Shown: positions 1,467 through 36,438, counted from the stretch's first letter. The stretch: DNA of 53,467 bases from Candidatus Omnitrophica bacterium CG11_big_fil_rev_8_21_14_0_20_64_10 (GCA_002787095.1 PCVW01000063.1:15608-69074), one strand, 5' to 3'. Notes: a model not told the origin generated them from the letters alone. Made by a program: numbers and translations.

Positions 1467-2717
1467 TCAGCCCGAAATGTTCAGGACCTTCCCGATGCGC
1501 TCCAACGCGGTTTTAAGGCGCTCCTCCGGCTCCACGAGGGCGAACCGGACGAACCCTTCCCCGTACTCGCCGAAGCCGGTGCCGGGAGCCACGACCACCC
1601 CCGCCTCCTCCACAAGCAGCTGAACGAACTCCAGGGAGCTCAGGGCGGAGAACTTCGGCGGGACATGGGCCCAGATATAGAAGGTGGCTTTGGGTTTGGC
1701 CACCTCCCAGCCGATCTTCTTGAGGCCCTCGACGAAGAGGTCCCGCCGCTTGCGGTAGATCTCTACCCCCTCCTTAACGCAGCTTTGGGGACCAGTGAGC
1801 GCCGCGATCGCCGCCTCCTGGACCGCCCGGAAGATCCCGAAATCGATGTACGATTTGGTCTTCTCGAGAGAAGCCAGGATCTCGGCATTGCCGGCCACCC
1901 AACCGACCCGCCAGCCGGCCATGTTGTAGCTCTTCGAGCAGGTGTGGAACTCGATGCAGGGCAGCTCCTTGGCCCCCGGCACCTGCAGGAGACTGGGGGC
2001 GGTGTAGCCGTCGAAGACGATGTCGGAGTAGGCCAGGTCGGAGGCCATGATGATCTCCTTACTCTTGCCCCAATCCACCCACTCCCGGTAGAAGTCCAGG
2101 TCCACCGTCGCGGTCGTCGGGTTGTGCGGATAGCCGACCAGCATCAACTTCGCCATCCGGGTGATCTCCTTGCTCAACGGCTTGAAGACCGGCTTGTAGT
2201 CGTGCTCGGCGCTGAGCGGCAGGCTCACGAGGATCCCCCCGGCCATGATCACACCGTTGAAGTGAACCGGATAGGCGGGGCTCGGGATCAGGCCGATGTC
2301 GTCGTTGTTCAGGAATGCCAGCGACAGGTGGGCAATCCCCTCCTTCGACCCGATCAGCGGCAGCACCTCCCGCTCCGCGTCCAATTCGACGCCGAAACGC
2401 TGGTGATACCATTTGGCGATCGCCTGCTTGAAGCGGCGCTCGACATCCCCTTTCGGGCGGGAGTAACGCTGATTCTCCACCTTCTTGGCGGCGTTGTGCA
2501 GCGCCTCCACGATGTGCGGCGGGGTCGGCAGATCCGGATTCCCCATCCCCAGATCGATCACATCCACCCCGCGGGCCGCCGCCTTCGCCTTCAGATCATC
2601 GATGATCGTAAAGAGATAGAGGGGCAGCCGCTTCATCCGGTTCGCCTCATGCATCACCGAGGGCTTCCCGGGAAACTCCGGCTTGATCTTGGAATCCGGT
2701 GTCGTTTTTCGCTTCAT
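1467..2717 (-). CDS. Class I/II PLP-dependent aminotransferase (AlaC/YfdZ-like)
   Basis: 416 aa. Contains KRLPLYLFTIIDDLKAKAAARGVDVIDLGMGNPDLPTPPHIVEAL and the PLP-lysine motif SKSYNMAGWRVGW. Its ATG overlaps the lipA stop (ATGA). Confidence 0.8.
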   Translation of the reverse strand: MKRKTTPDSKIKPEFPGKPSVMHEANRMKRLPLYLFTIIDDLKAKAAARGVDVIDLGMGNPDLPTPPHIVEALHNAAKKVENQRYSRPKGDVERRFKQAIAKWYHQRFGVELDAEREVLPLIGSKEGIAHLSLAFLNNDDIGLIPSPAYPVHFNGVIMAGGILVSLPLSAEHDYKPVFKPLSKEITRMAKLMLVGYPHNPTTATVDLDFYREWVDWGKSKEIIMASDLAYSDIVFDGYTAPSLLQVPGAKELPCIEFHTCSKSYNMAGWRVGWVAGNAEILASLEKTKSYIDFGIFRAVQEAAIAALTGPQSCVKEGVEIYRKRRDLFVEGLKKIGWEVAKPKATFYIWAHVPPKFSALSSLEFVQLLVEEAGVVVAPGTGFGEYGEGFVRFALVEPEERLKTALERIGKVLNISG

Positions 2718-3691: not shown

Positions 3692-4774
3692 TCAAGATTT
3701 CAGCTTCTCGACAATGGCGTCGGCCATCTGGCTGGTTCCCACCGGCGCGCCACTCCCTCCTCGCTTCAGATCATAAGTGACCGCCCGTCCCTCCTTGAGA
3801 ACCGCGCTCACCGCCGCCTCCAACCGGTCGGCCGCCTTCCCCTCTCCGAGGTGGCGCAGCATGAGGACCCCCGAAAGGATTGTCGCGACCGGGTTGACCT
3901 TGTTCTGTCCCGCGTACTTCGGCGCCGAGCCGTGTGTCGGCTCAAAGACCGCGGCTTCCGCTCCGATGTTCGCCCCCGGAGCCACCCCGAGTCCCCCGAC
4001 CAAACCAGCGCAGAGGTCGGAGATGATATCGCCGTACAGGTTCGGCAGCACCAGCACATCGAAGATTTCCGGCTTCTGCACCAGCTGCATGCAGAGGGCA
4101 TCCACGAGCCGGTCGTCCGCCTCCACCCGGCCGGCGTATTCGGCCGCCACTTTCCGAAATACCTCGAGGAAGAGACCATCAGAGAATTTCATGATGTTCG
4201 CCTTGTGGATCGCGGTCACCTTCTTCCGCTTGTTCTTCAGGGCATACTCGAAGGCAAACCGGATGATCCGCTCGGAACCTTCCGCGGAGATCGGCTTGAG
4301 CGACACCGCCGCGCTCGGCCGGATCGTCTTGCCGCCGTGCGCCTTGACCCAGCCGATCAGCTCCTTGACCTCGGGGGTGCCGTCGTCGTACTCGATCCCG
4401 GCATACAGGTCCTCGGAGTTCTCCCGGATGATCACCAGATCCACCCGATCGTAGCGGGAATTGATCCCGGGGTAAAGCCGGCAGGGACGGACGCAAGCGT
4501 ACAAGTCCAGGGCATGCCGCAGTCCCACATTGACGGAGCGGATCCCCTTGCCGATCGGGGTCGTGATCGGCCCCTTGATCGCCGTCTTGTTCTTCCGAAT
4601 GGAGGCCAGCAGCGGCTCCGGAAGCGGGGAGCCGAACTTCTCGATTGCCCCCTCGCCGGCGTCGTGCACCTCCCACTCGAACGACACGCCGGTCGCCTCC
4701 AGACACTTGCGGGCCGCTGACGACACCTCCGGCCCGATCCCATCCCCCGGAATAAAAGTCACCCGATGACTCAT
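3692..4774 (-). CDS. icd: Isocitrate dehydrogenase (isocitrate/isopropylmalate dehydrogenase family)
   Basis: 360 aa. Contains FIPGDGIGPEV, IRENSEDLYAGIEY (ICDH-type rather than the LeuB-type loop) and NLYGDIISDL. Its ATG overlaps the aspC stop (ATGA). Confidence 0.75.
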   Translation of the reverse strand: MSHRVTFIPGDGIGPEVSSAARKCLEATGVSFEWEVHDAGEGAIEKFGSPLPEPLLASIRKNKTAIKGPITTPIGKGIRSVNVGLRHALDLYACVRPCRLYPGINSRYDRVDLVIIRENSEDLYAGIEYDDGTPEVKELIGWVKAHGGKTIRPSAAVSLKPISAEGSERIIRFAFEYALKNKRKKVTAIHKANIMKFSDGLFLEVFRKVAAEYAGRVEADDRLVDALCMQLVQKPEIFDVLVLPNLYGDIISDLCAGLVGGLGVAPGANIGAEAAVFEPTHGSAPKYAGQNKVNPVATILSGVLMLRHLGEGKAADRLEAAVSAVLKEGRAVTYDLKRGGSGAPVGTSQMADAIVEKLKS

Positions 4775-5943
4775 TTGAGCTTCTCCGTAAATTCAGCCAG
4801 CCGGTCCAAACCGACCAGCATCTCCTTGGTGTCCAAACAAAAACTGACCCGCAAATGATCGGTCCAGCCGAAACCGCTCCCCGGCACCGCCGCCACCTCC
4901 GCCTCCTTCAGCAACCGCTCGGCCAAGGCGTCGGCATCGAGTCCGGTCCCGGAGATGTCGAGGAAGGCATAGAAGGCGCCGGCCGGCGCAGCGGCAAGCT
5001 TCACCTTCCGTATCCGGCCCACCCGCTCCACGAGCAGGTCCCGCCGCTTCTTGAATTCCCGCGCCATCGCCTCGACCGGCCCCTGCTCCCCGGTCAAGGC
5101 GGCGAGCGCGGCCCGCTGGCTGATGTGGCTCGGACAGGAGGTGGCGTGGTCCTGCAACCGCCCGCAGGCGGCGACCACCTTCTCCGGCCCGGCCAGGAAA
5201 CCGATCCGCCAGCCGGTCATCGCGTAGGCCTTCGAAACGCCGTCCACGATCAAGGTCTGCGGAGCCAGCTCCGGAAGCACCGCGAGGATCGACCGGGCCG
5301 GCCCGTCGAAACTGAGGCGGGCGTAGATCTCGTCGCTGATCACCCAAAGCCCCTTCTCCAACGCGATCCGGCCGATCGCCTTGAGCGTCGCTTCATTCAG
5401 CACCGCGCCGGTCGGATTGGCCGGACTGTTGAGGAGCAGACAGCGGGTTTTGGAAGTGCAAGCGGAAGCGACCTGTTCGGCCGTGAGGCGGAAACCGTCG
5501 GCGGGACGGGTCCGGACCTCGACCGGCGTGCCGCCGGCCAGCCGGACCATCTCCGGGTAGCTGACCCAATAGGGAGAGGGCATCAGCACCTCATCCCCCT
5601 CCTGAATCAGAGCCTGGATGGCGTTGTAGAGCGCCTGTTTGGCGCCGGAGGTGACGGCGACCTGTGCGGGGGAAAAGGAAAGGCCGGAGAACTTCCGGAA
5701 AGCATCGGCGACCGCCTGTTTGAGTTCCGGCAGGCCGGTCGTCGGGGTGTACTTGGTGGCTCCCCCTTCGATCGCGGCGATCGCCGCCTGCTTGATGAAA
5801 GCGGGGGTATCGAAGTCCGGCTCTCCACCGGCCAGGTTGATCACCTTCTTCCCCTGGGCCCGCATCTGCTTAGCCAGGGCGGTGATCTTCAGGGTCGCCG
5901 AGGGCTGGACCGCCTCGATTCTTCGGGTCAGCCCCGAAGGCAT
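4771..5943 (-). CDS. aspC: Aspartate/aromatic aminotransferase, class I
   Basis: Track ORF 4771-6378 trimmed to ATG 5943-5941, 1 nt after the rplQ stop. The discarded 145 N-terminal residues are R/P/S-rich and overlap rplQ. Motifs: INLAGGEPDFDTP and SKAYAMTGWRIGF. Confidence 0.85.
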   Translation of the reverse strand: MPSGLTRRIEAVQPSATLKITALAKQMRAQGKKVINLAGGEPDFDTPAFIKQAAIAAIEGGATKYTPTTGLPELKQAVADAFRKFSGLSFSPAQVAVTSGAKQALYNAIQALIQEGDEVLMPSPYWVSYPEMVRLAGGTPVEVRTRPADGFRLTAEQVASACTSKTRCLLLNSPANPTGAVLNEATLKAIGRIALEKGLWVISDEIYARLSFDGPARSILAVLPELAPQTLIVDGVSKAYAMTGWRIGFLAGPEKVVAACGRLQDHATSCPSHISQRAALAALTGEQGPVEAMAREFKKRRDLLVERVGRIRKVKLAAAPAGAFYAFLDISGTGLDADALAERLLKEAEVAAVPGSGFGWTDHLRVSFCLDTKEMLVGLDRLAEFTEKLK

Positions 5944-5944
5944 C

Positions 5945-6538
5945 TCAAGCGCCGCGGCGCTGGTCGCCGCCGAAGAATCGGCGCAGTCCCTTGAGGAAGC
6001 CCCCCTTCTTAGGCTCCTTGGGGCGATTCTGGGCCGATTCCGGCTTCTTCTTCCGGGAAGCGGGTGGTTGGACCTTTGGCTTCTCCGCCTCGGGGGCGGC
6101 CGACGGCGGCCGGATGGCGAGGGTCGAAACTCCCTTCTTCCGATCCCGGCGGACCGGTTCCGCCTTCTTGTCGAGGTCCGGGGAAAGTTCGGTCCACTCC
6201 AGCACGGCCATCGAGGCGCCGTCGCCGGACCGGATCCCGTTGTGCAGGATCCGGGTGTAGCCGCCGGCCCGGGAAGCGAACCGGGGGGCGATCTGGGAGA
6301 AGAGTCGTCCGACCCCCTGCTTGTCCTGCAGCAGGGCCACCGCCCGGCGGCGGTCGGCAAGCCCCCCCTTCTTGGCAAGAGTCACAAGCCGCTCCGCCAA
6401 CCGCTGGGCCTCTTTGGCCCGAGCCAGCGTGGTGTTGATCCGCTCATGGCGGACCAGCGCCTGTGCCAAGCTCTGGACGGTCGCCGCCCGATACGAGCTG
6501 AACCGTCCCAAATCCCGGGTATGGACCGCGTGTCCCAT
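5945..6538 (-). CDS. rplQ: 50S ribosomal protein bL17 with ~80-aa C-terminal extension
   Basis: The first ~116 aa match bL17 (HERINTTLARAKE..., GGYTRIL). The ATG is 1 nt after the rpoA stop. The tail ends KKGGFLKGLRRFFGGDQRRGA (re-translated by hand). Confidence 0.9.
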   Translation of the reverse strand: MGHAVHTRDLGRFSSYRAATVQSLAQALVRHERINTTLARAKEAQRLAERLVTLAKKGGLADRRRAVALLQDKQGVGRLFSQIAPRFASRAGGYTRILHNGIRSGDGASMAVLEWTELSPDLDKKAEPVRRDRKKGVSTLAIRPPSAAPEAEKPKVQPPASRKKKPESAQNRPKEPKKGGFLKGLRRFFGGDQRRGA

Positions 6539-8184: not shown

Positions 8185-8643
8185 TCAGACCCTCCTCCGC
8201 TTCGGAGGCCGGCAACCGTTGTGCGGAACCGGGGTCAGATCCCGGATACTTCGGACCTGCAACCCGGCCGCCTGCAGCGCTCGGATCGCCGATTCCCGGC
8301 CGGAGCCGGGACCCTTGACATACACTTCGACCTCTTTCATCCCCATCGTCATCGCCTTCTTGGCGGCGTTCTCCGCGGCCACCTGGGCGGCGAACGGGGT
8401 CGCCTTCTTCGATCCCTTGAAGCCGACCGAACCGGTGGAGGCCCAGCAGACCGCGTTTCCCTGGCGGTCGGTGATCGTCACGATCGTGTTGTTGAAGGTC
8501 GCATGGATGTGGACGATGCCGCTGGCCACCTGGGCGCGGGACCGCTTCTTTCCCTTGGCTTCGGCCGGCTTCACCTCGGCCGGCTTTTCTTCGGCGGCCT
8601 TGTTCTCGGCCGGTTTCTTCTCGTTTGGCTTCTTGTCTGCCAT
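8185..8643 (-). CDS. rpsK: 30S ribosomal protein uS11
   Basis: Core [18 protein letters not shown]...[12 protein letters not shown], with a K/P/E/A-rich N-terminal extension. Confidence 0.95.
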
Positions 8644-8646
8644 GAT

Positions 8647-9057
8647 TTATTTCTTTCCTTTCTGAGCGGACGCGGCCGGTTTGGCGGCGGCCGGCTTCGG
8701 AGCCGCCCCGACGGTCTGACGCGGCCCCTTGCGGGTCCGGGCGTTGGTGTGGGTCCGCTGACCCCGCACCGGCAGGCCCCGGCGATGCCGCGCCCCCCGG
8801 TACGACCCGATGTCGATCAGCCGCCGGATGTTCTGGGAAACCTCCCGACGCAGGTCTCCCTCCACCTTGTGGCCGGCAATGATCGCCGCGATCTTCGTGA
8901 CCTGGTCGTCGGTCAGGTCCTTGGCCCGGGTGGCCGGCGCAACGCGAGCCTCGGACAGAATCCGGGCCGACAGGACCGGCCCGATCCCGTACAGGTATCT
9001 CAACGCCACGTCAATCCGCTTTTCACGCGGCAGGTCAACGCCAACGATTCTCGGCAT
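8647..9057 (-). CDS. rpsM: 30S ribosomal protein uS13
   Basis: N-terminus [26 protein letters not shown], with an A/K/P-rich C-terminal tail. Confidence 0.95.
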
Positions 9058-16853: not shown

Positions 16854-17552
16854 TTACCCGTTTTTCCCTTCGGGAGCCGGAGCGGCGCTTCCGACCGCCC
16901 CTTTCGGCTCTTCCTTGAGCTGCTCCAACAAGGAGTCGCCCGTGTAAACCCAGCTCTTGACGCCGATCCGGCCATAGGTCGTCTGGGCCTCCGCGAAACC
17001 GAAGTCAATGTTGGCCCGAAAGGTGGAGAGCGGAATCTTTCCCTCCTTGTAGCTCTCCTTGCGGGACATCTCGATCCCGCCCAGCCGGCCGGCGCAGCGG
17101 ATCTTGACCCCCTGGACCCCCGAATCCATCGCCAGCTGGATCGCCCGCTTCATCGCCCGCCGGAAGTTCACCTGCCGCTGCAGCTGGAACGCCACATTCT
17201 CGGCGATCAACTGGGCGTTGCCGACCGGGTCCTTGACCTCCTTGATGTCGATCACGATCTCCTGGTCGGTCAAGCGGTGCAGGTCGTCCCGCAAGCGGTC
17301 GATGTCCGCTCCCCGGCGGCCGATCACGATCCCGGGACGGCCGGAGTGGATGATCACCCGCACCTTCCCGCCGGTCCGCTCGATCTCGACATGGGCGACC
17401 GCCGCATTCTGCAGCTGTTTCTGCAGATGCTTCCGGATCCGGATGTCCTCAGTCAGCAGCTTCCCAAAAGTCTGTCGGGGAGAGAACCACCGGGAAGCCC
17501 AGTCCTTCGTGTAGCCCAGACGATTCGCCAGAGGGGGTACTTTGTGTCCCAC
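16854..17552 (-). CDS. rpsC: 30S ribosomal protein uS3
   Basis: The track start at 17558 is TTG, only 3 nt after AGGAG. GTG at 17552 gives (M)GHKVPPLANRLGYTKDW with AGGAG 9 nt upstream. Confidence 0.9.
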   Translation of the reverse strand: MGHKVPPLANRLGYTKDWASRWFSPRQTFGKLLTEDIRIRKHLQKQLQNAAVAHVEIERTGGKVRVIIHSGRPGIVIGRRGADIDRLRDDLHRLTDQEIVIDIKEVKDPVGNAQLIAENVAFQLQRQVNFRRAMKRAIQLAMDSGVQGVKIRCAGRLGGIEMSRKESYKEGKIPLSTFRANIDFGFAEAQTTYGRIGVKSWVYTGDSLLEQLKEEPKGAVGSAAPAPEGKNG

Positions 17553-17586
17553 GCTCAAAAACTCCTATTGATCAAAAGGTCATCGC

Positions 17587-19334: not shown

Positions 19335-19978
19335 GACGCAGACTCCTCCGCACGGCCGCCCAGCGCCTTGACCGCGCCGGCCGTCAGCACCAGTTGGGGG
19401 GCCGCCAGCACATCGTAGCAGTTGAGCTCCGCGGCGCTGCGGACTGAAACCCCCGGAATGTTCCGGGCAATCCGGACCAGCGTCGGGTCATGTTTCTCCA
19501 CGACCAGAAGAACCCCGCCGGTCACCGAAAGGGACTTCAGGACCGAGGCCAACGCCTTGGTTTTTGGTTCCAATTCCTCGAGACGGTCCACGATCCGAAG
19601 CCGCTCGGCCTCCAATTTCTGCTTCAGCCCCTCGCTCAGCGCCTGCCGCCGAACGGTCTGAGACAGCGCGATCCGGTAATCCTTCGGCGTCGGGCCGAAG
19701 ACCACCCCGCCCCCCCGCCACTGGGGGGCCCGGATCGAACCCTGCCGGGCCCGGCCGGTGTGCTTCTGCTTCCAGGGCTTTCTCCCGCCGCCGGAGACCT
19801 CGCCCCGGTCTTTGGTCTTCACGGTCCCCTGGCGCCGGTTGGTCCGGTACATCCGAACCGCCTGCCACAGCAGGGCGGTGTTCACCTCTCCCTCCCATCC
19901 CTTCGGAAGGGACTGCTTTCCGACCACCTTGCCGGAACGATCCAAGATATCCATCTGCTTGAGCGCCACGGGGGTCAA
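19331..19978 (-). CDS. rplD: 50S ribosomal protein uL4
   Basis: 215 aa. Contains KDRGEVSGGGRKPWKQKHTGRARQGSIRAPQWRGGG. The start at 19978 is TTG overlapping the rplC stop; an alternative ATG lies at 19954. Confidence 0.9.
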   Translation of the reverse strand: MTPVALKQMDILDRSGKVVGKQSLPKGWEGEVNTALLWQAVRMYRTNRRQGTVKTKDRGEVSGGGRKPWKQKHTGRARQGSIRAPQWRGGGVVFGPTPKDYRIALSQTVRRQALSEGLKQKLEAERLRIVDRLEELEPKTKALASVLKSLSVTGGVLLVVEKHDPTLVRIARNIPGVSVRSAAELNCYDVLAAPQLVLTAGAVKALGGRAEESAS

Positions 19979-20808
19979 CCCTTCTTTTCCTCTTTCTTCT
20001 CAGCCTGCGAACCCTTCTTCTCGGCCTTTGCGTCCTTCTTTTCCGGCTTGGCCTCCTTCTTCTCGGCCTTGCCTTCCTTGGCCTCCCCCTTCCCCTTCTT
20101 CGAAGCGGGAGCGGCGGCCGCCTTCTTCTGCCGCCGGGACTTGACGATCGTCACCACCGACCGATCCGAGCCGGGCACCGCCCCGCGGACCAACAGAAGG
20201 TGGTTCTCGAGATCCACCTGAATCACTTCCAAGTTCTGAATAGTGGTCCGCTCCCCCCCCATCCGGCCCGGCAGATGGTGCCCCTTGTAAACCCGGGAGG
20301 GCTCGGAACTGGAGCCGATCGATCCCGGCGCCCGGTGGGACATCGAACCGTGGGTCGCCGGCCCCCCGCGCCAGTTCCAGCGGGCCATCCCTCCCTGGAA
20401 CCCCTTGCCGATCGAGACGCCGCTGACATCCACCCGGTCTCCCGGCTTGAACAGCTCAACGGTCACGGTGGCTCCCGGAGCAAGCATTTCGGCCGCCGGC
20501 TTCTCGCCCGAAGCAGCCGGCTTCCCGGGCGCGGCGGCGAGCCGGGGGAGCCGAAACTCCCGGACAACCTGCTTCGGAGACACCTGGGCCTTCTTGAACT
20601 GTCCAAGGACCGGCTTGGCCACCCGCTTCTCCGGCCGCTCCCCGAAACCCAGCTGGACCGCCGGATAACCGTCCCCCTCGACCGACTTGACGCGGACCAC
20701 CGAGCAAGGACCGGCCTCCAGGACGGTGACCGCGACCGGCCGGCCATCCTCCCGAAACATCTGGGTCATCCCCAGCTTTCTGCCGATGAGCCCCACGCCG
20801 AGCCGCAT
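19975..20808 (-). CDS. rplC: 50S ribosomal protein uL3 with K/E/A-rich C-terminal tail
   Basis: ATG at 20808 ([18 protein letters not shown]) is 1 nt after the rpsJ stop and is preferred over 20826. The tail reads ...[41 protein letters not shown]. Confidence 0.9.
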
Positions 20809-20809
20809 G

Positions 20810-21117
20810 TTACTTGATCTCCACATCCACGCCGGCCGGCAGATCGAGCTTCCGCAGCGCGTCGATCGTTCGGGCGGTCGGATTCAGGATGTCCAGCAAA
20901 CGCTTGTGCGTCTTGATCTGGAACTGCTCCCGCGACTTCTTGTCGACATGCGGCGAACGAAGCACCGTGTAAATCTCCCGCTTGGTCGGCAGCGGAACCG
21001 GACCGGCAACCTCCGCCCCCGTCCGCTTGGCCGACTCCACAATCTCAATCGTGGAGCGGTCCAGTATCCGGTGATCGTATGCCTTCAGCTTGATTCGAAT
21101 CTTTCTCTGTTCTTCGG

Positions 21118-35093: not shown

Positions 35094-36287
<1,194 letters not shown>

Positions 36288-36365
36288 TGTCCCCTCGCAG
36301 TTGCTGTTGGTTGACTCTATTTTAGTTGGAACAAAAAAGCGTAAAAAACCCCTCCCCACTTTTCC

Positions 36366-36438
36366 AGCTGGAGACGGGAATTGAACCCGTGACCCCGTCC
36401 TTACCAAGGACGTGCTCTACCAACTGAGCTACTCCAGC
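36366..36438 (-). tRNA. tRNA-Thr (anticodon GGU)
   Basis: GCTGGAGTAGCTCAGTTGGTAGAGCACGTCCTTGGTAAGGACGGGGTCACGGGTTCAATTCCCGTCTCCAGCT; cloverleaf folded by hand. Confidence 0.9.

Follow-up and report, generated by a model that had tools for sequence, protein, structure and literature searches.

A conserved amphipathic peptide at the C-terminus of ribosomal protein bL17 in Candidatus Omnitrophota, a candidate membrane anchor on the ribosome

The ribosomal protein bL17 of Candidatus Omnitrophica bacterium CG11_big_fil_rev_8_21_14_0_20_64_10 carries, beyond an ordinary L17 core, a long disordered linker that ends in a cationic amphipathic peptide, and more than 250 L17 sequences share this layout of core, linker, and terminal motif. 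Its gene, rplQ, lies in a stretch of 53,467 nucleotides (GCA_002787095.1, PCVW01000063.1:15608-69074), hereafter called the window, from whose first letter all coordinates are counted. What would a ribosomal protein do with such a peptide? We propose that it is a peripheral membrane anchor on a flexible spacer that holds ribosomes at the cytoplasmic membrane, a reading of the sequence to which we give about an even chance. Bacterial ribosomes are not known to arrive at the membrane otherwise than via the nascent chain, through the signal recognition particle (SRP) and FtsY, SecA, or transertion. A motif-ended bL17 is apparently undescribed so far and places a peptide of the membrane-targeting sequence (MTS) type, as found in MinD, on a new and surprising carrier. 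An earlier note on this DNA, made from the sequence alone, knew of no such ribosomal protein; in agreement with it, we found no L17 or bacterial ribosomal protein with an MTS described in 8.3 million full texts, where "BL17" mostly denotes a synchrotron beamline.

The bL17 tail and its conservation

The product of rplQ is a bona fide bL17. The gene sits after rpoA and closes the alpha operon (order S13-S11-S4-rpoA-L17), residues 22-115 match the Pfam family Ribosomal_L17 (PF01196) with an E-value of 9.6e-33 and 113 bits against a cut-off of 27, and bL17 chains in the PDB are matched at E-values of about 1e-30 (1.6e-30 for the E. coli chains). When modeled by AlphaFold 2 (AF2), residues 11-120 have predicted local distance difference test (pLDDT) scores above 90. 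The E. coli protein has 127 residues (PMC5071890), and that of the window is some 70-80 residues longer. The C-terminal part of the translation reads ...NRPKEPKKGGFLKGLRRFFGGDQRRGA up to the stop codon, and the extension past the L17 core is ELSPDLDKKAEPVRRDRKKGVSTLAIRPPSAAPEAEKPKVQPPASRKKKPESAQNRPKEP-KKGGFLKGLRRFFGG-DQRRGA (Table 1). These last 81 residues (117-197, nucleotides 5948-6190) include 13 K, 11 P, 10 R, 8 A, 7 G, and 6 E and have a net charge of +13; the linker is modeled as coil (pLDDT 56-73). No Pfam family matches within them, and comparison with Pfam and the PDB linked the tail to no described domain and no solved structure. The motif follows the disordered linker and ends eight residues before the C-terminus. 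The earlier note had described a K/P/E/A-rich tail of about 80 residues after a core ending at about residue 116, with hydrophobic residues at i, i+1, i+4, i+7, and i+8; both hold, the hydrophobic positions being F181, L182, L185, F188, and F189, and the coordinates and translation it gave are also correct. It had also argued against an artefact of ORF calling, as the stop codon lies one nucleotide before the ATG of an aspC gene, and the TGA of rplQ (5947-5945) is indeed separated by a single G from the aminotransferase ATG (5943-5941).

Table 1. Positions of rplQ, of the segments of its product, and of other features in the window
Feature	Position	Strand	Basis
rplQ, bL17 of 197 residues plus TGA stop	5945..6538	-	ORF with ATG start, PF01196, PDB matches
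Globular L17 core, residues 1-116 (...ASMAVLEWT)	6191..6538	-	translation, AF2, Pfam
Disordered K/P/E/A-rich linker, residues 117-176	6011..6190	-	translation, AF2 coil
Terminal cationic amphipathic motif with flanks, KKGGFLKGLRRFFGG, residues 177-191	5966..6010	-	hydrophobic moment, conservation
Motif core GFLKGLRRFF	5972-6001	-	
Post-motif residues DQRRGA, 192-197	5948..5965	-	translation
aspC-like class I/II aminotransferase (context gene, not tail)	4771..5943	-	PF00155, E=1.4e-76
uS11, K/E/A/P-rich low-complexity extension	8185-8643	-	
uS13, K/E/A/P-rich low-complexity extension	8647-9057	-	
uS3, K/E/A/P-rich low-complexity extension	16854-17558	-	
uL3, K/E/A/P-rich low-complexity extension	19975-20826	-	
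Mechanical tuf ORF	35094-36407		
tRNA-Thr	36366-36438		

Is the tail genuine? Five independent assemblies, from one Logan run, three Joint Genome Institute (JGI) metagenomes, and one European Nucleotide Archive (ENA) assembly, encode one and the same bL17 of 197 residues, which rules out the assembly frameshift that the earlier note had thought worth checking. A mis-called stop is ruled out as well by these assemblies, by the in-frame tail of relatives, and by a G+C content at third codon positions of 0.80 in the tail, close to the 0.86 of the core. In 13 related loci of 47-67% G+C, third codon positions differ while the motif peptide is kept, which points to selection on the peptide and not on the DNA; these loci were picked by a peptide-level pattern, so the codon result is illustrative. 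We also considered that the motif might overlie an element acting as DNA or RNA, which is ruled out because third codon positions are free where the amino acids are kept. The tail is therefore real coding sequence under selection. That it is an artefact (frameshift, read-through, or mis-called stop) or neutral low-complexity sequence with a chance likeness to MinD is exceedingly improbable. Look-alikes of short peptides do occur: the mechanical tuf ORF runs upstream over a tRNA-Thr gene and this spurious extension reads GRGFLRFF, which shows that a bare peptide pattern resembling the L17 motif can arise by chance, and the FFGG at the end of the window motif is atypical of its family. However, with more than 250 homologs sharing the architecture, motif codons varying synonymously, and a motif at least 90% conserved beside an unalignable linker, conservation has already refuted this explanation.

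The conservation is best seen in the closest relatives. Approximately 57 close homologs (39-60% identity) were found in 5.8 billion proteins, all of them with the tail and with at least 95% query coverage, while the next-best matches are ordinary tail-less L17s of 136-142 residues. When the window protein and 54 homologs were aligned end to end, F181, G184, L185, and R186 were conserved in at least 90% of the 55 sequences and the linker could not be aligned. Two profile searches, one of them against 1.84 billion cluster representatives, then widened the set. Among 280 long-tailed L17s, 218 have the long motif h-h-x-x-h-[RK]-x-h-h, 7 a short MinD-like form, and about 25 a degenerate version; the tails of about 28 are K/A-rich or acidic and unrelated to the motif. 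The terminal pattern is K-P-K-G-F-[LIVF]-x-G-L-R-x-[FLI]-F-K, which a position table of 145 sequences resolves into K-[PK]-K-G(77%)-F(83%)-[LFVI]-x-G(76%)-L(80%)-R(80%)-[KGRN]-[FLIY]-F(84%)-[KR]-[KRG]; the family consensus of the bL17 end is KPKGFLEGLRKFFKKDRP, and the consensus form of the terminal peptide is KPKGFLEGLRKFFKKDRPKQ. Motif positions 2, 3, 6, 9, and 10 are hydrophobic in 97-100% of sequences, with F, L, I, V, M, W, and Y interchanging, a figure that comes partly from selection since sequences were picked by their score on those positions. On the polar face, positions 4 (G/E/D/K) and 8 (K/G/R/N) vary, which is what a functional hydrophobic face would lead one to expect. The flanks are basic (61-81% K/R at positions -3, -1, 11, and 12), and the terminal peptide has a median net charge of +5. 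Linkers are hypervariable, 30-107 residues long (median 61), and composed of 27% K, 17% E, 15% P, and 10% A; the motif is followed by 2-16 residues, mostly basic.

Within this family, seven members have exchanged the long motif for the MinD-like short form, for example KKPGFFKRFFGRNKEK and SFFKKFFQRRTQM, the latter from a named Omnitrophota. GFFKRFFG, LPFWKRMFKK, and GLFGKIFNRK are such shorter replacements, set in a different register, and R7 is lost in GNISKFF and GGIQKMF. A large Omnitrophota clade has a near-invariant ...FKKERDSL-COOH end (P0140, P0151, P0152, P0156, P0169, P0197, P0208, P0267, P0314, P0333, and others). P0128 (163 residues), P0052 (150 residues), and P0256 (218 residues) are rare exceptions: two have the N-terminus of the window clade and a tail without the motif, and one has a motif-like FPEGLFGKRKK internally, followed by 30 more residues. 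These three may be losses, truncations, or assembly errors.

Who possesses the tail? All tailed bL17 records that name a phylum are Candidatus Omnitrophota/Omnitrophica, including Ca. Zapsychrus exili, except for six metagenome-assembled genomes (MAGs) with the unconfirmed label "uncultured Planctomycetia", whose L17s group with the window clade. When proteins were looked up through their clusters, 1 of 10 carried a taxon name. The records named Omnitrophota span both the window clade, with its MPHAVYTR... N-terminus, and the larger MRHRK... clade with the ...FKKERDSL end. The tailed, motif-ended bL17 is apparently phylum-wide in Omnitrophota, although the sequence sets were collected with tail-containing queries, so that neither the share of Omnitrophota with the motif nor its absence elsewhere is rigorously established. 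Five loci from "uncultured Planctomycetia bacterium" MAGs (ERP125453) combine the Omnitrophota-type N-terminus, the tail, the motif, and the linkage of rplQ to aspC (L004, L009, L014, L015, and L016, on contigs CAZRTR010000009.1, CAYJSX010000021.1, CAYJTM010000050.1, CAYJVR010000001.1, and CAYJTC010000016.1, respectively). Most likely the Planctomycetia labels are in error; otherwise the trait reaches beyond Omnitrophota.

The peptide is specific to L17. Using the strict back-translated motif G-F-h-x-G-L-R-[KR]-F-F-K, we scanned one genome per species for 185,579 species and found 16 matches, 13 of which are L17 C-termini while 3 look like chance. In JGI metagenomes, 19 of 26 matches belong to L17 ends or to tails truncated where a contig stops, the rest look like chance, and no non-L17 protein family recurs among the matches. 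Because these scans return L17 ends almost exclusively, the peptide is a feature of L17 and not a module shared with other proteins; a generic module common to other proteins was considered and not found in them. The sole match within a long non-L17 ORF, an internal ...GEKGFVKGLRKFFKDESL... in a 572-residue stop-to-stop ORF on a contig of 42% G+C (L031, Ga0306920_100074204, approximately 2365-2397, minus strand), is probably due to chance.

A putative ribosome-borne anchor and competing explanations

A motif so close to the C-terminus, placed after a spacer of variable length and sequence, has the layout of an anchor on a tether, and its substitution pattern resembles that of an amphipathic helix with basic flanks; these two points are the strongest in favor of an anchor. 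On a helical wheel, F2, L3, L6, F9, and F10 cover an arc of about 120 degrees, with G1 and G5 at one edge and R7 at the other, and x4, K8, and K11 form the polar face. On the Fauchere-Pliska scale, the hydrophobic moment of the window motif is 0.92 for the 9-mer and 0.76 for the 11-mer, the highest in the protein and one reached by 0.6% of shuffles of the same residues, which bears out the amphipathicity anticipated by the earlier note. The E. coli MinD MTS has moments of 0.48 (11-mer) and 0.62 (9-mer), and other MTSs give 0.84 (FtsA), 0.66 (MreB), 0.42 (FtsY), and 0.57 (SepF). Throughout the family, the terminal 9-mer has a median moment of 0.81 versus 0.47 for the best linker segment, and the terminal moment exceeds 0.6 in 150 of 180 long tails, whereas the K/A-rich and acidic L17 tails of other types reach 0.2-0.4. 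On the Wimley-White scale, the interfacial sum is -1.9 kcal/mol both for the window motif and for the short form, against -0.6 for the MinD MTS. In moment, interfacial hydrophobicity, and basic flanks, the motif equals or exceeds validated MTSs. The terminal moment alone was dropped as a discriminator since folded proteins of the window reach similar values; the argument therefore hangs on where the motif lies, at the tip of a disordered linker, and on how well it is conserved. That the family accepts a swap of the long motif for the MinD-like short form suggests a physico-chemical and not a stereospecific requirement.

How might such an anchor operate? The protein would consist of three parts: a normal L17 core, rRNA-bound and peripheral to the polypeptide exit site; an extended, disordered K/E/P/A-rich spacer of 30-107 residues; and, at the C-terminus, a peptide of about 11 residues, G-F-L-x-G-L-R-K-F-F-K, which is cationic and amphipathic and would physically match the MTSs of MinD, FtsA, FtsY, and MreB. 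This peptide would be unfolded in solution and form an in-plane helix upon meeting anionic phospholipid, with F2, L3, L6, F9, and F10 entering the bilayer and R7 and the flanking lysines facing the lipid head groups. As the earlier note had it, bL17 is near the tunnel exit: in E. coli, L17 surrounds the exit together with L22, L23, L24, L29, and L32 (10.1101/312850). Its place is peripheral, as the inner exit ring is described as comprising only uL22, uL23, uL24, and uL29 (PMC5071890). From this location, a spacer of 60 residues would be able to reach a membrane on that side; being disordered, it could extend well beyond 100 Å. One weak anchor on each 50S subunit would give a lone ribosome a transient hold, and polysomes would attach through avidity. 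Two MinD MTSs in tandem were used to tether FtsZ (PMC5471200), and since a single one binds weakly, polysome avidity is a reasonable, if unproven, corollary. Translation would thereby be biased toward the cytoplasmic membrane without dependence on the nascent chain or SRP. In the most far-reaching version of this proposal, which we rate just short of an even chance, Omnitrophota ribosomes would be built for the membrane: the bL17 tail helix would tether every 50S subunit to the bilayer throughout the phylum, independently of nascent chain, SRP, and translocon, and with polysome avidity.

Could the tail instead serve the ribosome itself? It might fold back, or reach a neighboring ribosome, so that the peptide binds an rRNA or ribosomal protein surface and stabilizes the exit-site region, replaces a missing rRNA or protein element, or promotes ribosome pairing or hibernation. 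rRNA is a common target of basic ribosomal-protein extensions, the net charge of the tail is in keeping with this, and K/E/A-rich extensions are also present on uL3, uS11, and uS13 of the window. Yet those other extensions have no hydrophobic end, and the long bL17 tails of solved actinobacterial ribosomes have no such motif. Moreover, a fixed docking distance ill fits linkers that range from 30 to 107 residues with no conserved sequence, and conserved hydrophobic residues at i, i+1, i+4, i+7, and i+8 are atypical of rRNA-binding extensions. Given the unconstrained linker length and the hydrophobic nature of the conserved residues, we consider such docking quite improbable.

Several observations weigh against a lipid anchor. 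While the tail and the terminal motif are conserved in all relatives found, near and distant, the FFGG that gives the window protein its MinD look is peculiar to that sequence, the family consensus being FFKK. The E-containing consensus has a Wimley-White sum of +1.3 kcal/mol before the helix-folding term, raised because position 4 is acidic or glycine in most members. The terminal peptide contains two or three glycines, and with deep alignments for two clades AF2 models the motif as coil (pLDDT 56-66), a result that says nothing about folding at a membrane as the protein is modeled without lipid. G1, G5, and R7 are 76-80% identical although the L17 cores of the phylum are only 35-40% identical, and this conservation appears stricter than generic amphipathicity requires. 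Finally, the post-motif residues are conserved within clades (KKDRPxx, KRRDNP, and KKERDSL), and the KKERDSL end is retained where the amphipathic core has changed (QFFRRIFKSKRDSL and FREFIKRVFKRERDSL), a hint that a protein recognizes it. The extreme C-terminus is under separate selection, for which lipid binding alone is no explanation.

These features speak for the main alternative, in which the peptide would act as a short linear motif and contact a specific protein via its hydrophobic face, in the manner of FtsZ. The partner might be a nascent-chain factor, a translocon component, or an Omnitrophota-specific protein, and a membrane-protein partner would likewise bring the ribosome to the membrane. 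Such a role would account for the phylum-wide identity of G1 and G5 (a GxxxG spacing), L6, and R7 (76-80%) and of F2 and F10 (83-84%), and for KKERDSL, KRRDNP, and KKDRP ends that are kept within clades despite hypervariable linkers. The motif is exclusive to L17 and not shared with other peripheral membrane proteins, and the lack of an autonomous helix in AF2 is common among motifs that acquire their fold when bound. On the other hand, the family tolerates a shorter motif in another register (GFFKRFFG, LPFWKRMFKK, and GLFGKIFNRK) as well as the loss of R7, and a fixed protein interface would not easily accept such wholesale replacement. Basic flanks on both sides of an F/L/W hydrophobic face are the signature of a lipid-binding helix, and no candidate partner has been identified, the sole conserved neighbor being the aminotransferase. 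We considered this aspC-like enzyme and find it implausible as a partner. On balance, a protein-binding motif seems somewhat unlikely, and we favor the membrane anchor.

Why does this matter? If the anchor is real, it would be the first case of a bacterial ribosomal protein with a membrane anchor of its own, a free-living analog of the mL45 tether of mitochondrial ribosomes, fixed across a whole phylum of ultra-small bacteria. Very small cells and a host-dependent lifestyle have been reported for Omnitrophota; an anchor on bL17 may relate to both cell size and lifestyle. If the motif binds a protein instead, it would be a pointer to an unknown ribosome-associated factor. The motif also provides a simple sequence marker for Omnitrophota L17.

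Genomic neighborhood of rplQ

The window has 64% G+C, and its minus strand holds the entire ribosomal-protein/RNA-polymerase gene block, from tuf to rplQ; genes for tRNA-Trp, Thr, Gly, Tyr, Thr, and Met flank the tuf region. The aminotransferase of the window lies on the same strand as rplQ, and the same gene is found 3' of rplQ in most related loci with enough downstream sequence, at a gap of 5-27 nt or, in two loci, 131 nt. The linkage of rplQ and aspC was recorded in L004-L006, L009, L012, L014-L016, L023, L027, L029, L032, L035, L036, L038, L042, and L045. This linkage is conserved and, for a metabolic gene placed behind the alpha operon, unusual; the two genes may be co-transcribed or translationally coupled. 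Among the other ribosomal proteins of the window with low-complexity extensions (uL3, uS11, uS13, and uS3; Table 1), uL3 is 283 residues long and extended at its C-terminus, and uS11 is extended at its start. None of these four has a hydrophobic terminal motif.

Comparison with known systems

The MTS of E. coli MinD is KGFLKRLFGG (PMC5471200), in agreement with the resemblance described in the earlier note, although the letter-by-letter match it drew (KKG-FLK...FGG) is partly specific to the window protein. Like the bL17 motif, the MinD MTS occupies the extreme C-terminus, is about 10 residues long and flanked by glycine, has F/L pairs on one helical face and basic residues before and within it, and is similar or lower in moment and interfacial hydrophobicity. 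It is almost identical to the short form GFFKRFFG of some Omnitrophota L17 tails. The carriers differ entirely, since bL17 is a ribosomal protein and not a ParA/MinD ATPase; L17 is its sole Pfam domain, and the two proteins have no homology. The bL17 motif is also longer, with five hydrophobic positions versus four, an internal glycine, and a near-invariant arginine, and it is borne on a spacer of 30-107 residues whereas the MinD MTS is attached directly to the fold. Furthermore, bL17 has no ATP-dependent dimerization switch, so that any avidity of its putative membrane binding would have to come from polysomes. The resemblance between bL17 and MinD is convergent, at the level of a functional class of peptides.

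The C-terminus of FtsA, the N-termini of FtsY and MreB, SepF, and segment A of RNase E are likewise short cationic amphipathic peptides with comparable moments. Across a phylum, these peptides vary far more in sequence than the L17 motif does. They fold upon contact with the membrane and bring soluble machines to the inner membrane, and none of them belongs to the ribosome. RNase E shows that such a segment can put RNA-processing machinery at the membrane (PMC12594526).

Are other extended bL17s comparable? The actinobacterial proteins (180 residues in PDB 5v7q and 199 residues in 5o60) also have a long low-complexity C-terminal extension, and they align with the window protein to about residue 164 at most. 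In contrast to the Omnitrophota tails, these and the other K/A-rich or acidic tails have no hydrophobic terminal motif, their terminal moments being 0.2-0.4 versus about 0.8. A closer match in design is FtsZ, in which a globular domain is followed by a variable disordered linker and a conserved C-terminal peptide, so built that the polymer is tethered to the membrane via FtsA and ZipA. FtsZ and bL17 have the same three-part design, with a few basic residues after the terminal peptide. The FtsZ peptide, of the type D-I-P-x-F-L-R-K, binds proteins and not lipid, and the likeness is an analogy of design only; it serves as a model for the protein-binding alternative.

The closest functional analogs of the proposed tether would be mL45 in mammals, Mba1 in yeast, and mL119 in Chlamydomonas, ribosome-borne or ribosome-bound tunnel-exit proteins that attach the large subunit to the membrane constitutively (PMC8998825). 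These tethers are folded proteins, Tim44-like in mL45 and Mba1, that act at least partly through the Oxa1 insertase and are mitochondria-specific additions, and a Pfam search found no Tim44-like domain in the bL17 of the window. Unlike these tethers, to which it has no homology, bL17 is a universal bacterial ribosomal protein with a short peptide of the lipid-binding type. A lipid anchor in such a protein would amount to a different, constitutive spatial organization of translation, paralleling that of the membrane-tethered mitoribosome.

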